Source: Phormidesmis sp. (lineage in GTDB: Bacteria; Cyanobacteriota; Cyanobacteriia; Leptolyngbyales; Leptolyngbyaceae). From it: a DNA stretch of 64,000 nt. The notes beneath the pieces are model-generated. The model saw only the letters and a list, made by a program, of their open reading frames with translations. It searched no databases and was not told the origin of the DNA. The stretch lies in assembly GCA_965248535.1 (NCBI GenBank), contig CBDFJR010000005.1:224001-288000 (forward strand), read 5' to 3'. Position numbers and translations under genes: made by a program. Shown one piece after another: positions 1-3,951 of this stretch (position 1 is its first letter; each line of letters starts with the position of its first letter).

Positions 1-1266
1 AAAAATTCGGCGCTGGTGATCATCGTCGGAGCGCTCCTCTGCCCCCAAGATTGCCGGATTCGTAACGTTCCTCAGTTAGCCGATGTCACCCGGATGGGCG
101 AGATTTTAGCCGCGCTGGGGGTCAAGCTCACCCAGAATGCCGACGTTTTAGACATTGATGCGTCTCATATCAGTCACACAAAAGCGCCCTATGAGTTGGT
201 CAGCCAGCTTCGGGCCAGCTTTTTTATCATCGGGCCTCTGCTAGCCAGAATGGGCGTAGCGCGGGTGCCTTTGCCCGGAGGTTGCTCGATCGGGGCCCGC
301 CCCGTTGATCTCCATGTGCGCGGTTTGCAGGCGATGGGCGCAAATGTGCAGATCGAGCATGGCATCGTCCATGCCTATGTGACGGGGCCCAGCAAGCGAC
401 TTCAGGGAGCCAAGATCTACCTCGATTACCCCAGCGTGGGCGCAACTGAAACTCTGATGATGGCCGCTACCCTAGCCGAGGGTGAAACCACGATCGAGAA
501 CGCCGCTCAAGAACCCGAAGTTGCAGATCTAGCCAATTTCTGCCGGGCCATGGGAGCCAAAATTCGCGGCGCAGGCACCAACACGATCGTGATCTCCGGC
601 GTGCCCAGTCTGCACTCGGTTGATTACAGCATTATTCCCGATCGCATTGAGGCAGGCACCTTTTTGCTGGCGGGGGCGATGACCCGATCGGAGATCACCC
701 TATCGCCGATTATTCCTGACCATTTGACTGCCGTTCTCGCTAAGATGCGCGACATGGGCATCCGAGTCGTGATGGATAGCCCCAAACAAATGAGAATTCT
801 GCCGAGTCAGAGCTATCGCTCAACAGACATCGAGACGCTTCCCTATCCAGGGTTTCCCACCGATATGCAAGCCCCGTTTATGTCGCTGCTGACCCTAGCC
901 CAAGGCGATAGCGTGATCAGCGAGACCGTGTTTGAAAACCGTTTGGGCCATGTGCCCGAACTGAATCGGATGGGGGCAGACATTCGGGTTAAGGGCAATC
1001 ACGCGATCGTGCGGGGGGTCTCGATGCTGTCGGGTGCGCCTGTGGTTGCCACTGACTTGAGAGCGTCGGCGGCGCTAGTGGTGGCGGCGTTGGCAGCAGA
1101 AGGCAAAACGACGATTCAGGGGTTGCATCACCTCGATCGCGGCTATGAACACCTGGAACTAAAGCTGAAAAAGCTCGGCGCTAAACTCCAGCGCGTCCAA
1201 GAACCCTCTGACTTGGAGCCGACGACACCCCCGATCGAGCCAAGCGTCCTGAGTTCACCTGCTTAG
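1..1266 (+). CDS. murA: UDP-N-acetylglucosamine 1-carboxyvinyltransferase (5' end lies outside the window)
   Basis: Frame is open from base 1 (KNSALV...). Motifs [15 protein letters not shown] with the catalytic Cys, [22 protein letters not shown] and LDRGYE. Confidence 0.97.
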
Positions 1267-1427: not shown

Positions 1428-2300
1428 ATGTCTTTCTCAAAGTCGCTCCTCATTGGCTTAAAGGCGGATCAGTTTCGTCACCCGTTAGATCTAGAAGCCA
1501 CCAACTCGCTGAAACAGCTACCTGGACTGGATCTGCTGATCCGCAATCTGCTGGGCCCTGTGGCAGAACAGTTTTTCTATTTAGAAAATATTGCTTCGAG
1601 CATTCTAGTTGGTGAGCAACAGCTTCCTCAAATTCACCACCTGCTGCTAGAAGCTTGTCAAGTCTTGGATATTGAGCCGCCGCAACTCTACGTGCGTCAA
1701 AATCCTGTGCCCAACGCCTACACCTTTGCGATGCGAGGCAAACAGCCGTTTATCGTGATGCACACCTCGCTGATTGAGTTGCTCACGCCAGAAGAGATTC
1801 AGGCGGTGATTGCCCATGAGCTAGGGCACCTCAAATGTGACCACGGCGTTTATTTGACTCTGGCAAATATTATGGTTTTAGCTGCCGGACAGCTTCCTTT
1901 GGGGGGCGCGATCGCGCAGGGTTTGCAGGCTCAAATTTTAGAATGGGTGCGCTGTGCAGAATTTACGTGCGATCGGGCGGCTCTCCTCGCGACTCAAGAC
2001 CCCAGAACGATCATGTCTGTGATGATGAAGCTCACAGGCGGGTCGCCGTCTCTGGCGAGTCAACTTAATCTAGATGCCTTCATCGCTCAGGCACGAGCCT
2101 ATGATGAGGTGGGCAAAACTGAGGTGGGTCAACTGCTCAAGCAGATGCAGACGGCTCAGTTAACCCATCCGGTGCCTGTGTTGAGGGCGAGAGAAATCGA
2201 TCGCTGGGCCAGCAGCCAAAGTTATCAGTCGTTGTTAAAAAAGCAAGCAACAGGCTATAATAACGAAACGCAATCCAAGGGCGGATGGCGAAACTGGTAG
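1428..2300 (+). CDS. M48 family zinc metallopeptidase
   Basis: HEXXH motif (AHELGH), PNAYT, AEFTCDR and THP motifs. ATG at 1428 preferred over TTG at 1416. Confidence 0.9.
   Translation: MSFSKSLLIGLKADQFRHPLDLEATNSLKQLPGLDLLIRNLLGPVAEQFFYLENIASSILVGEQQLPQIHHLLLEACQVLDIEPPQLYVRQNPVPNAYTFAMRGKQPFIVMHTSLIELLTPEEIQAVIAHELGHLKCDHGVYLTLANIMVLAAGQLPLGGAIAQGLQAQILEWVRCAEFTCDRAALLATQDPRTIMSVMMKLTGGSPSLASQLNLDAFIAQARAYDEVGKTEVGQLLKQMQTAQLTHPVPVLRAREIDRWASSQSYQSLLKKQATGYNNETQSKGGWRNW
2232..2261 (+). promoter_or_regulatory. Candidate sigma70-type promoter for tRNA-Leu, embedded in the M48 CDS
   Basis: TTGTTA (2232-2237), 18 nt, then TATAAT (2256-2261), 17 nt upstream of the tRNA 5' end. Confidence 0.55.
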
Positions 2301-2360
2301 ACGCACCACACTCAAAATGTGGCACCGAAAGGTATGGGAGTTCGATTCTCCCTCCGCCCA
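2279..2360 (+). tRNA. trnL: tRNA-Leu (anticodon CAA), CCA not encoded
   Basis: Acceptor stem GGGCGGA/TCCGCCC plus discriminator A; D-loop AACTGGTAGAC; anticodon arm CCACA-CTCAAAA-TGTGG; long variable arm ACCGAAAGGT; T arm GGGAG-TTCGATT-CTCCC. Confidence 0.97.
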
Positions 2361-2369
2361 TCTTAATGA

Positions 2370-2591
2370 ATGCACAGAGATTCTGATCAGATCGTGCCTG
2401 AAAAGCGTCTAGGTCAAGAATATGTAGGGTTCTACCTACCTGAAGGCAAACGAGAGTTATTCAGGGAATACTGCCAGTTCATCGACAGCAGCATGAAGGA
2501 TGAACTGGAAAAATTTGTTGATCAACAAATCTCTGATCCCAAGTTTCAGCAGTACTTAGAAATGAAGCGGAAACTACAGGAAGGGAGATGA
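2370..2591 (+). CDS. Small protein, possible ribbon-helix-helix DNA-binding (ParG/CopG-like)
   Basis: 73 aa. Alternating strand YVGFYLP followed by two amphipathic helices (KRELFREYC, SMKDELEKFVDQQI). Confidence 0.5.
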   Translation: MHRDSDQIVPEKRLGQEYVGFYLPEGKRELFREYCQFIDSSMKDELEKFVDQQISDPKFQQYLEMKRKLQEGR

Positions 2592-2628: not shown

Positions 2629-3951
2629 TTAAGCATTCCAGCGTTTGATCACCTGCCACACAATTTTGGGATGGTAGAAAGCCGCAGGCGATTTTAGAAG
2701 GTGGGCAATCTCCATAAACAGCGTGTTCATGTCTGAATCGACGCTAGTTTGTTTCATTAATTTTTTGACATAGCCACTGAGCAAATTCTCAGCCCAGTTA
2801 GAGCGCGATCGTCCCTCGGTGCTCAAAAATCGCGAGTCTTGCCCAACCGCCAGCATCCACGGAAAGCGGTTGCTTTGAGCCAGCCGACGCTGAAAATCAG
2901 CCGAATTCAGCCTTCCACTGCCTAGCCAATCTCGCAGCACCAGAGTAGACAGAGCGCTAATCGTCATGCCTTGCCCATAGACCGGGCACAGCGCACAGAC
3001 CGCATCTCCTAGAGCCACGAAGCCATCAGGCAGATTTATTTTTTCATAGTGTCGCCAGCGATTGGCGGTCGCACGGTGAGCATAAATCTCAGAAACAGGC
3101 TTTGCGGCCACGATCGCATCATAGAACGCCGAAGATTGAAGACTACGGGCAAAATCTAGAAATCCAGACTCGTCGATCGGGGGAAAGTCGTGCCCATATC
3201 CGCCCAAGGTCGCGATCCATTGTTCGTCTTCAATTTTTGCCAGATAGCCTAATCGCGTTGCGTCGGGCGGCTGCTGAGAGATGAGCATCACCTTCCAGTC
3301 GTCTGCGTGGTGGGCGGGCACTTTATAGCGGCGAGTCGCATAGCCCAAAAACGGATTGACGACAGTTTCTGAGGGCGACCCAAATCCGGCCCGTTCTAGC
3401 CACTTGGGAGCCGCAGACCTCCGACCACTCGCATCAACTACCAAGGAGGTTGGGAGGTGCGATCGGGTTCTTTCAGGCATCAATTCCAATTCAACGCCCG
3501 TGATTTTCTCGTTTTTGGATAATAAGCCCGTGACGCGATGACGATCGACAAACTTGACGTGAGAAAGAGCCGCCAGTTTTTGCCGAATTGCCCACTCTAG
3601 CAGCGGCCGCGAACAGGTGAACGACGCAATAGAAGTCGGCTGATCGGTGCGACAATTCCAAGCGCCCTCGTTGAAATAGTGAAACTCGCGGGCCCAGTCG
3701 ATCGGGATCGCGCCCGCCTGACGCAAATCGTTGCCAATGCCCGGAAATAGCTCTTCTAAAATCTCATACCCTCTCGTAAACAAGACGTGAGGTTGAGGCG
3801 ATTGAGGCACTCCGGTGCGGTTTGCAGGGTGAGTCGGCAAGCGATCGCGCTCGACCACAATCACGGCATCAAAAAAGTCAGCCAAGACGCGGGCGGTGAG
3901 CAGTCCGGCGATGCTGCCACCGATGACCACTGCTTGAGTTAAATCTTTCAT
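2629..3951 (-). CDS. FAD-dependent monooxygenase/oxidoreductase
   Basis: N-terminal GGSIAGL dinucleotide-binding motif, VVDASGR (DG motif) and LGDAVCALCPVYGQGM (GD motif). Confidence 0.88.
   Translation of the reverse strand: MKDLTQAVVIGGSIAGLLTARVLADFFDAVIVVERDRLPTHPANRTGVPQSPQPHVLFTRGYEILEELFPGIGNDLRQAGAIPIDWAREFHYFNEGAWNCRTDQPTSIASFTCSRPLLEWAIRQKLAALSHVKFVDRHRVTGLLSKNEKITGVELELMPERTRSHLPTSLVVDASGRRSAAPKWLERAGFGSPSETVVNPFLGYATRRYKVPAHHADDWKVMLISQQPPDATRLGYLAKIEDEQWIATLGGYGHDFPPIDESGFLDFARSLQSSAFYDAIVAAKPVSEIYAHRATANRWRHYEKINLPDGFVALGDAVCALCPVYGQGMTISALSTLVLRDWLGSGRLNSADFQRRLAQSNRFPWMLAVGQDSRFLSTEGRSRSNWAENLLSGYVKKLMKQTSVDSDMNTLFMEIAHLLKSPAAFYHPKIVWQVIKRWNA

Follow-up and report, generated by a model that had tools for sequence, protein, structure and literature searches.

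Can the last codons of a protein gene also be the first nucleotides of a transfer RNA (tRNA) gene, and what would such sharing mean for each of the two? This question is raised by a locus of the cyanobacterium Phormidesmis sp. (GenBank assembly GCA_965248535.1), which lies in a stretch of 64,000 nucleotides (nt) taken from contig CBDFJR010000005.1, positions 224,001 to 288,000 of the forward strand. We call this whole stretch the window and number it from its first letter. Near its beginning, the gene of an M48 metallopeptidase ends inside the gene of tRNA-Leu(CAA) on the same strand, so that the stop codon of the protease belongs to the tRNA. A model that saw only the letters and a list of open reading frames (ORFs) had proposed, in what we call the original prediction, that maturation of the tRNA from a read-through transcript removes this stop codon and that tRNA processing and protease output could therefore be mutually exclusive. 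The comparison of orthologues described here favors another reading, in which the locus is an ancient piece of two-use DNA: the promoter of the tRNA would lie within the protein gene, the tail encoded by the tRNA would be selected as a peptide, each gene would constrain the other, and the arrangement would have been undone repeatedly. We assign this reading a probability of roughly 0.8. The two genes and their shared part are as follows.

1428 to 2300, plus strand: coding sequence (CDS) of the M48 metallopeptidase, from the ORF list (ATG at 1428, 290 amino acids (aa); an in-frame TTG at 1416 would give 294 aa).
2279 to 2360, plus strand: tRNA-Leu(CAA), class II, 82 nt, CCA not encoded (ARAGORN; Rfam RF00005).
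2279 to 2300, plus strand: the doubly used 22 nt, which are both the end of the M48 CDS and the 5' end of tRNA-Leu(CAA).

The CDS ends with AAG GGC GGA TGG CGA AAC TGG TAG, which reads KGGWRNW followed by the stop. Base 2279 is at once the third base of the Lys codon and G1 of the tRNA; positions 2280-2297 encode GGWRNW and form the 5' strand of the acceptor stem, U8/G9 and the D-arm, and the TAG stop codon (2298-2300) sits in the D-loop, 20-22 nt inside the tRNA. The tRNA is the sole one found by ARAGORN in the 64-kb window. It has the cloverleaf with a long variable arm and the anticodon CAA that characterize a bacterial class II tRNA-Leu (ARAGORN, Rfam), and the Rfam tRNA model RF00005 matches 2279-2360 with 57 bits (gathering threshold 29, E 2.8e-11) over 71 of its 71 positions. 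The sequence, the ORF list, ARAGORN and Rfam thus agree with the 22-nt same-strand overlap and the position of TAG in the D-loop that had been predicted. The overlap is not a product of chance: a same-strand ORF of more than 100 aa ends within only 1 of the 52 tRNA genes counted by ARAGORN in the genome (the next longest such ORF has 91 aa), and of 206 distinct orthologues 118 show the overlap as well. In the same census tRNA-Leu(CAA) is a single-copy gene, and TTG makes up 22% of the Leu codons in long ORFs of the window. Note that Rfam also returned a 'Plastid-ycf2' match on the minus strand of the tRNA, with 29 bits against a gathering threshold of 65.7, which we rejected as a likeness to tRNA.

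Orthologues of the M48 gene were collected in three sets. The first has 30 loci, taken from 41 related genomes. The second has the best 80 among 545 relatives on named genome contigs, from Leptolyngbyales, Oculatellaceae, Nostocales, Chroococcidiopsidaceae, Pleurocapsales, Coleofasciculaceae and others. The third has all orthologues with E <= 1e-60 in an evenly drawn phylum sample of 301 genomes, each at least 90% complete. Combined, the sets contain 225 loci that encode 206 distinct proteins. In the phylum sample, an orthologue was present in 119 of the 301 genomes, of which 72 had the overlap with the tRNA, 37 had the tail without the overlap, 9 had no tail and 1 was cut by a contig end. Of the 37 genomes with a tail only, 15 had a tRNA-Leu(CAA) at most 1.5 kb downstream on the same strand. 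At E <= 1e-60, no orthologue was found in the 14 genomes of one family of small genomes (f2), and ten further families had one in 1 of 166 genomes. The distinct proteins divide similarly into 118 overlapping, 76 tail-only, 9 tail-less and 3 cut by contig ends, and the frame, stop position and tail peptide were kept in 194 of all 206. The original prediction had mentioned a GGWRNW-like ending in cyanobacterial homologues; in the phylum sample, GGWRNW was found in 94 of 119 orthologues and W-R-N-W in 110 of 119. It had also suspected a conserved arrangement, and had considered that most orthologues might instead stop upstream of the tRNA. With 72 of 119 orthologues overlapping, the arrangement is conserved across cyanobacteria and a stop upstream of the tRNA is not the rule. 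The overlap is old and widespread.

We then considered the tail itself. Among the 118 overlapping orthologues, the tails were GGWRNW (104), GEWRNW (9) and GKWRNW (5). In the 76 tail-only orthologues, which include an entire Nostocaceae clade of 18 tree rows, GGWRNW stood at the end of 71, and both Trp codons were present in all 76. The codons of these free tails had drifted: the third base of the second Gly codon was A, T, C or G in 27, 19, 17 and 11 cases, Arg was encoded by CGC (25), CGA (24), CGG (13), CGT (10), AGA (2) or AGG (2), and the stop codon was TAA (37), TAG (36) or TGA (3). The linker that precedes the tail had 0 conserved columns in a 60-sequence alignment (A1). Such synonymous-only change beside a freely varying linker means that the peptide and the place where the protein ends are under purifying selection. 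GGWRNW is thus under selection as a peptide, independently of the tRNA, a point that the original prediction had missed, and the comparison indicates that the protein now needs its tRNA-derived tail. As for the role of the tail, our guess is a short C-terminal motif on a flexible linker, used for docking or for anchoring on a lipid surface. Since sll1280, a Synechocystis protein that is taken up below, is reported from cyanoglobule lipid droplets (PMC12223511), one may reasonably guess, but no more than guess, that the tail is a C-terminal anchor or docking motif rich in Trp and Arg. A sorting signal shared with other proteins was also considered and rejected, since a C-terminus of the GGWRNW type ends just 1 of the 7605 open frames of at least 100 aa in the genome, namely the M48 gene.

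The second half of the question concerns the tRNA, whose putative promoter lies within the CDS.

2232 to 2237, plus strand: -35-like hexamer TTGTTA (promoter scan), encoding Leu-Leu of the conserved YQSLL helix end.
2256 to 2261, plus strand: -10 hexamer TATAAT (promoter scan), encoding Tyr-Asn and ending 17 nt before tRNA +1.
2267 to 2278, plus strand: predicted 5' leader of the pre-tRNA, ~12 nt, with a transcription start site (TSS) near 2267 as deduced from the position of the -10 hexamer.

The two hexamers with their 18-nt spacer (TTGTTA-18 nt-TATAAT, 2232-2261) match the sigma-70-type hexamers in 10 of 12 positions, and the spacing falls within the 16-18 nt of that type. The promoter scan on its own was not significant, with 2 sites in the region against 1.0 +/- 1.1 in shuffles. 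Conservation was more telling. A -10 box was taken to be any TAnnnT that agreed with TATAAT in 5 or 6 of 6 positions and ended 14-21 nt before tRNA +1. Of the overlapping orthologues, 113 of 118 had one, 96 of them at a distance of precisely 17 nt, versus 6 of 76 tail-only orthologues. At the protein level, a Tyr-Asn, Tyr-Asp or Tyr-Thr dipeptide was present in the linker of 115 of 118 overlapping versus 12 of 76 tail-only orthologues, and TTG occupied the -35 position in 40 of 54 overlapping versus 12 of 45 non-overlapping ones. Moreover, 18 of 20 separated tRNAs had a -10 box no more than 30 nt upstream, and in many cases former codons of the CDS end come after the box; TATAATAGTGAAGTTGCACCTAA, for instance, abuts a tRNA that is now 1448 nt downstream of the CDS. 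The TATAAT in the CDS, which the original prediction had put forward as a candidate promoter of the tRNA, can thus be read with confidence as the -10 element of the tRNA's own promoter; it is conserved where the tRNA needs it and moves with the tRNA.

Published maps of Synechocystis 6803 are in agreement with this. Table S1 of Kopf 2014 (PMC4195498) gives transcription unit TU1125 on the minus strand, with a start at 1096684, a 25-nt 5' untranslated region, the content sll1280, tRNA 6803t12, sll1281, sll1282 and sll1348, and internal starts at 1095808 and 1095531. Table S19 of Hoffmann 2021 (PMC8682795) gives a processing site at 1095793, in a row annotated '6803t12,sll1280', and a second one at 1095711, 82 nt beyond the first; neither site is RNase E-dependent. 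By these entries, a TSS at 1095808 lies 15 nt upstream of the tRNA 5' end and inside the protease gene, and the two processing sites, one at either end, bracket an 82-nt tRNA that is orthologous to the one of the window. The +1 of the Synechocystis tRNA would fall at CDS nucleotide 867, which with a 22-nt overlap gives an 888-nt CDS, the geometry seen in our loci L131 and L133. In the supplements to Kopf 2015 (PMC5386190), sll1280 and 6803t12 were not found.

The two genes leave marks on each other. In overlapping orthologues, all 118 stop codons were TAG. The codon that precedes the tail ended in G (AAG, CAG, ATG, GAG and so on) in 118 of 118 because that base is G1 of the tRNA. In tail-only orthologues, the third base of this codon was mostly A, C or T, and AAA was the commonest codon (27 of 76). 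The D-arm had its 15-nt form in all overlapping tRNAs, whereas a 14-nt form occurred in 4 of 20 separated ones; a D-arm one base shorter would break the reading frame if it overlapped. The acceptor stem of overlapping tRNAs was paired at 7 of 7 positions in 102 of 118 and at 6 of 7 in the other 16. Variants that changed both strands of the stem, such as GGGCAAG/CTTGCCC and GGGCGGC/GCTGCCC, either turned Gly into Lys in the protein or were silent, GGGCAAG/CTTGCCC accompanying the tail GKWRNW. These compensatory changes indicate that the tRNA-Leu structure has been maintained in evolution. The comparison thus shows a mutual constraint: the stop is always TAG, the codon that precedes the tail is always NNG and the length of the D-loop is fixed, while changes in the acceptor stem translate into G, E or K in the tail.

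The overlap has apparently been resolved many times. On a 213-row protein tree, built without the tail columns, the overlap state changed 17 times by parsimony, and at least 11 of these changes are forced by branches with a value of at least 95 in the Shimodaira-Hasegawa-like approximate likelihood ratio test (SH-aLRT); the earlier, 128-row tree gave 13 changes. A tRNA was found downstream on the same strand in 30 of the 76 tail-only distinct orthologues. The spacers that part the tRNA from the CDS are 29 to 2777 nt long, and those of different lineages are not related. A separated tRNA can lie up to 2.8 kb off the CDS or beyond the flank that was fetched. Fossil codons of the CDS end precede separated tRNAs and show that a segment of at least about 45 nt was duplicated, comprising the -10 box and the leader as well as the 5' portion of the tRNA. 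After such a duplication, the upstream copy lost the promoter and the tRNA-specific bases and kept the peptide, and the downstream copy kept the promoter and the tRNA. By this comparison, the overlap has been undone many times through partial duplication.

Several loci differ in other ways. In L078 and L090 (Chlorogloeopsis), the CDS stops with TAA, the remainder of the old tRNA has decayed behind it, and a distinct tRNA-Leu(CAA), whose acceptor stem differs and whose D-loop is shorter, starts 29 nt downstream. Extra tRNA-Leu(CAA) genes were also seen downstream of an overlapping copy, at +265 and +1241 nt in L172 (G167) and at +1066 nt in L200 (G145).

Where did the tail come from? In its 5' part, the tRNA has the usual sequence of a tRNA-Leu, and this part predates the fusion. 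Outside the clade, a tail of the form W[RK][ND]W was found in 0 of the 150 best family representatives, which are mostly N-extended and eukaryote-like and 33-58% identical, and relatives of the plant type end soon after the YxxLL helix, without GGWRNW. In the trees, five deep tail-less cyanobacterial lineages group with the eukaryote-like sequences, and a branch with an SH-aLRT value of 89 separates them from all tail-bearing rows. Hundreds of kb separate the M48 gene from the best tRNA-Leu(CAA)-like match in three genomes of these deep lineages. Presence against absence of the tail requires 4 changes on the 213-row tree; the remaining tail-less rows are L113, which sits on a long branch, two decayed tails (LAKNWW and LGWSNW) and one premature TAA. 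We infer that in an ancestor of a large cyanobacterial clade a rearrangement set tRNA-Leu(CAA) at the 3' end of a gene of the PGM48/sll1280 type, that the M48 reading frame would then have run into the tRNA, its first 22 nt being read as ...K-GGWRNW-stop, and that the new, tRNA-encoded tail would then have been recruited by the protein. This order of rearrangement, read-in and recruitment is likely.

Among the other explanations, the strongest is that of the original prediction, in which the overlap is a regulatory device. Because the stop codon is inside the tRNA, every mRNA that encodes the full tail includes the first 22 nt of the tRNA, and a scan of the region showed no terminator-like site in between. 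In a read-through RNA whose tRNA part had folded, RNase P would cut at 2278/2279 and leave a non-stop mRNA for transfer-messenger RNA (tmRNA), which follows from established enzymology; conversely, a ribosome that terminated at TAG would cover the acceptor strand and the D-arm and prevent the tRNA from folding. The means for this are available: the genome contains RNase P RNA (243 bits) and a tmRNA with the tag ANNIVPFARKAVTA. Metatranscriptome contigs of relatives, 157-162 nt long, cross the junction (2205-2361/2366) in the runs X2, X4 and X5, all from a single study; 8 runs were listed, of which 4 were examined. The Synechocystis processing site listed by Hoffmann 2021 (PMC8682795) at the tRNA 5' end lies inside sll1280, and the overlap has been retained in 72 of the 118 classifiable orthologues of the phylum sample.

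The tRNA, however, has a conserved promoter of its own, so that the mapped processing site need not derive from the mRNA. Furthermore, the overlap state changed at least 11 times while both genes were kept, and the distances to which separated tRNAs have moved imply that the coupling is dispensable. The tail, moreover, is selected as a peptide, so that the full-length protein is the product that counts. We therefore regard as rather unlikely a device in which RNase P removes the stop, the product is tagged by tmRNA, and maturation of the tRNA excludes output of the protease and vice versa. Likelier than such a regulatory switch, in our view, is that the coupling is a cost which is tolerated or, at most, one that limits how much protease is made. 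With such a limit, termination inside the tRNA might compete with its folding and with cleavage by RNase P, and each mRNA might yield only a few full-length proteins before it became a tmRNA substrate. Such a self-limiting mRNA is a tentative proposal, on which we would bet no more than on the switch. If it were true, protease output would be set by ribosome traffic and by tRNA-processing capacity, and the self-limitation of the mRNA would be built in and conserved.

A second alternative reverses the direction of change: the separated state, in which one copy of the 22 nt belongs to the CDS and the tRNA follows further downstream, would be ancestral, and overlaps would have arisen many times by deletion between the repeats. 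The two 22-nt direct repeats are indeed able to recombine, a same-strand tRNA downstream is found in the 30 tail-only orthologues mentioned above, and parsimony counts carry no direction. However, overlapping orthologues stand at the base and in most branches of the tail-bearing clade. In addition, separated tRNAs have, upstream of them, decaying copies of the Tyr-Asn-Ser-Glu-Val-Ala-Pro-Lys codons from the CDS end, which imply copying out of an overlap, and the spacers differ among lineages in both length and content. On this view, too, the CDS must first have captured tRNA sequence. We thus find an ancestral separation distinctly improbable.

More improbable still is that GGWRNW is a passenger, conserved merely through conservation of the tRNA and without function in the protein. 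Where the genes overlap, the tRNA by itself would account for the conservation, and neither the plant-type relatives nor any of the 150 family representatives have the tail. One genome (L186) even has a premature TAA before it. Against this stand the 71 of 76 non-overlapping orthologues, the 18-row Nostocaceae clade included, that retain GGWRNW with synonymous drift and with TAA or TGA stops beside a linker that varies freely. Finally, gene callers run by rule to the first stop and the promoter scan alone was not significant, but an artefact, in which the real CDS stops upstream of the tRNA and the extension is a chance open frame, can practically be dismissed given a frame, stop position and peptide conserved in 194 of 206 distinct orthologues, such an ORF at 1 of 52 tRNAs and such a motif at the end of 1 of 7605 open frames.

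In L186 (G234), the premature TAA comes right after the Tyr of the -10 box codons, 17 nt 5' of an intact tRNA-Leu(CAA); the allele may be naturally tail-less, or else the sequence contains an error.

Several points weigh against the reading of the locus as ancient two-use DNA. The eukaryote-like sequences that root the tree descend from a cyanobacterium and are not a true outgroup, and the split of the tail-less lineages has its SH-aLRT value of 89, no bootstrap and several long branches. Some of the changes in overlap state may be re-fusions by deletion between the 22-nt copies, which makes the number of separations uncertain. The loci were not sampled independently of phylogeny, the 80 named ones being the best 80 of 545 relatives, and the -10 criterion was set only after the alignments had been looked at. 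The role given to the tail is a guess only, and plant-type relatives function without it. As for the transcripts, the spanning contigs show that CDS and tRNA are contiguous, with no information on single transcripts, ends, strand or level, and may come from carry-over of DNA. In addition, TU1125, as listed in Kopf 2014 (PMC4195498), is an algorithmic merge and thus not evidence of read-through.

How does the locus compare with known systems? In animal mitochondria, CDSs and tRNAs overlap and tRNAs punctuate the transcripts, their excision by RNase P and RNase Z defining the RNA ends. The locus resembles these in that the 3' end of a protein gene overlaps a tRNA of the same strand. However, the mitochondrial stop codon is often completed by polyadenylation after excision, whereas here the entire TAG is 20-22 nt inside the tRNA, so that nothing is completed after excision and excision would give a non-stop mRNA. 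The locus differs further in belonging to a free-living bacterium, in having a dedicated, putative tRNA promoter in the CDS and in a tRNA-encoded peptide that is itself selected. Mixed operons of tRNA and mRNA are known in E. coli (thrU-tyrU-glyT-thrT-tufB and secG-leuU), where the genes are adjacent and RNase P separates them. They too have tRNA and mRNA on one strand, possibly co-transcribed as here, but their genes adjoin without overlap and no codon lies within a tRNA. The locus also shares with the overprinted dual-coding genes of phages and bacteria the double constraint and a sequence frozen at doubly used sites. Unlike in those genes, the second reading is a structural RNA and not another frame, and there are at least 11 changes of overlap state as well as, in some lineages, duplication fossils of the separation, with one function left to each copy. 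The rescue of non-stop mRNAs by tmRNA (ssrA) would act on the M48 mRNA if this were cut at 2278/2279. To our knowledge, no conserved, programmed source of non-stop mRNA by tRNA excision has been described in bacteria.

A literature search for the M48/tRNA-Leu overlap, for sll1280 and for GGWRNW found no description within its coverage, which left out subscription journals, and among the matches listed for overlapping tRNA genes there were only mitochondrial and phage cases. The overlap thus seems to be undescribed, although it is visible in the Synechocystis annotation, where the table row cited above lists sll1280, like the window gene, as overlapping a tRNA (PMC8682795).

The locus is a deep and widespread same-strand overlap of protein and tRNA genes in free-living bacteria, found in 72 of 119 orthologues, and, if our reading is right, an example of new coding sequence born from an RNA gene, in which a tail translated from a tRNA would later have become indispensable by itself. 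The separated copies would form a natural replicate experiment, each having shed the constraint that it no longer needed, and would show how a conflict between overlapping genes is resolved. The arrangement has practical sides too: annotation pipelines that forbid overlaps of CDS and tRNA would truncate or drop the M48 gene, and engineering near genes of the sll1280 type in model cyanobacteria could harm the sole tRNA-Leu(CAA) gene or its promoter. It also provides a concrete system for asking whether tRNA excision can feed trans-translation.

The product of the M48 gene was characterized by profile and sequence searches. It matches the Pfam profile Peptidase_M48 (PF01435) over residues 65-260 with E 1.3e-20 and 74.4 bits (cut-off 20.3), and NCBIfam HtpX models gave only partial matches, far below their cut-offs. 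Its zinc-binding motif is located as follows.

1815 to 1829, plus strand: HELGH zinc-binding motif, residues 130-134 of the M48 product, read from the sequence.

H130, E131, G133 and H134 of this motif were invariant in alignment A1. An identical 290-aa protein is already present in the NCBI/ENA collections, and records of Phormidesmis priestleyi are ~96% identical. The best family representatives are N-extended, eukaryote-like proteins with 50-58% identity to the window protein; the best of them is 58% identical over residues 11-275, and homology ends at 275. The genome has a second M48 paralogue, which is 36% identical and has a different C-terminus without the GGWRNW motif. According to the statement in PMC12223511, sll1280 is a homologue of the plant plastoglobule peptidase PGM48 (Arabidopsis AT3G27110), and the two would belong to the same protein family as the window protein. 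Our linking of the window CDS with PGM48 and sll1280 relies on the shared geometry and on that statement, not on named sequences. The plant relatives of the PGM48 type differ from the window protein in having no GGWRNW. In an exploratory comparison, tail-bearing orthologues had specific residues, among them G10, D35, R103, C176 and F179, for which no contact with the tail is claimed. Note that a TATACT at 1393-1398 on the plus strand, 30 nt 5' of the M48 start, is a possible -10 box of the protease gene's own promoter; the promoter scan did not list it because it has no -35 element.

The surroundings of the two genes are partly conserved. Ahead of the M48 gene there is a gene of the murA type (window 1-1266, plus strand; Pfam EPSP_synthase, E 1e-102), and a tRNA-Leu(CAG) lies on the minus strand shortly before the window begins (C5:223605-223690). 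An opposite-strand tRNA-Leu(CAG) is found ~2.6-3.3 kb upstream of the M48 stop in most named loci as well, so that, with tRNA-Leu(CAA), two tRNA-Leu genes flank a conserved murA-M48 pair. Directly behind the tRNA there is a 73-aa ORF (2370-2591, plus strand) that matched no Pfam or NCBIfam model; in the metatranscriptome contigs of relatives, 2366-2605 is replaced by 26 other letters. It is followed by a convergent gene (2629-3951, minus strand) for a 440-aa protein resembling oxidoreductases or monooxygenases dependent on flavin adenine dinucleotide (FAD; Pfam FAD_binding_3 and DAO), which also gave a weak, QhpG-like NCBIfam match far below the cut-off. Elsewhere in the same genome (C2:1122291-1123133), tRNAs for Trp, Phe, Leu(CAG; 75 nt) and Ser(AGA) are clustered within ~850 nt, and this cluster accounts for the second copies of several tRNAs in the census.

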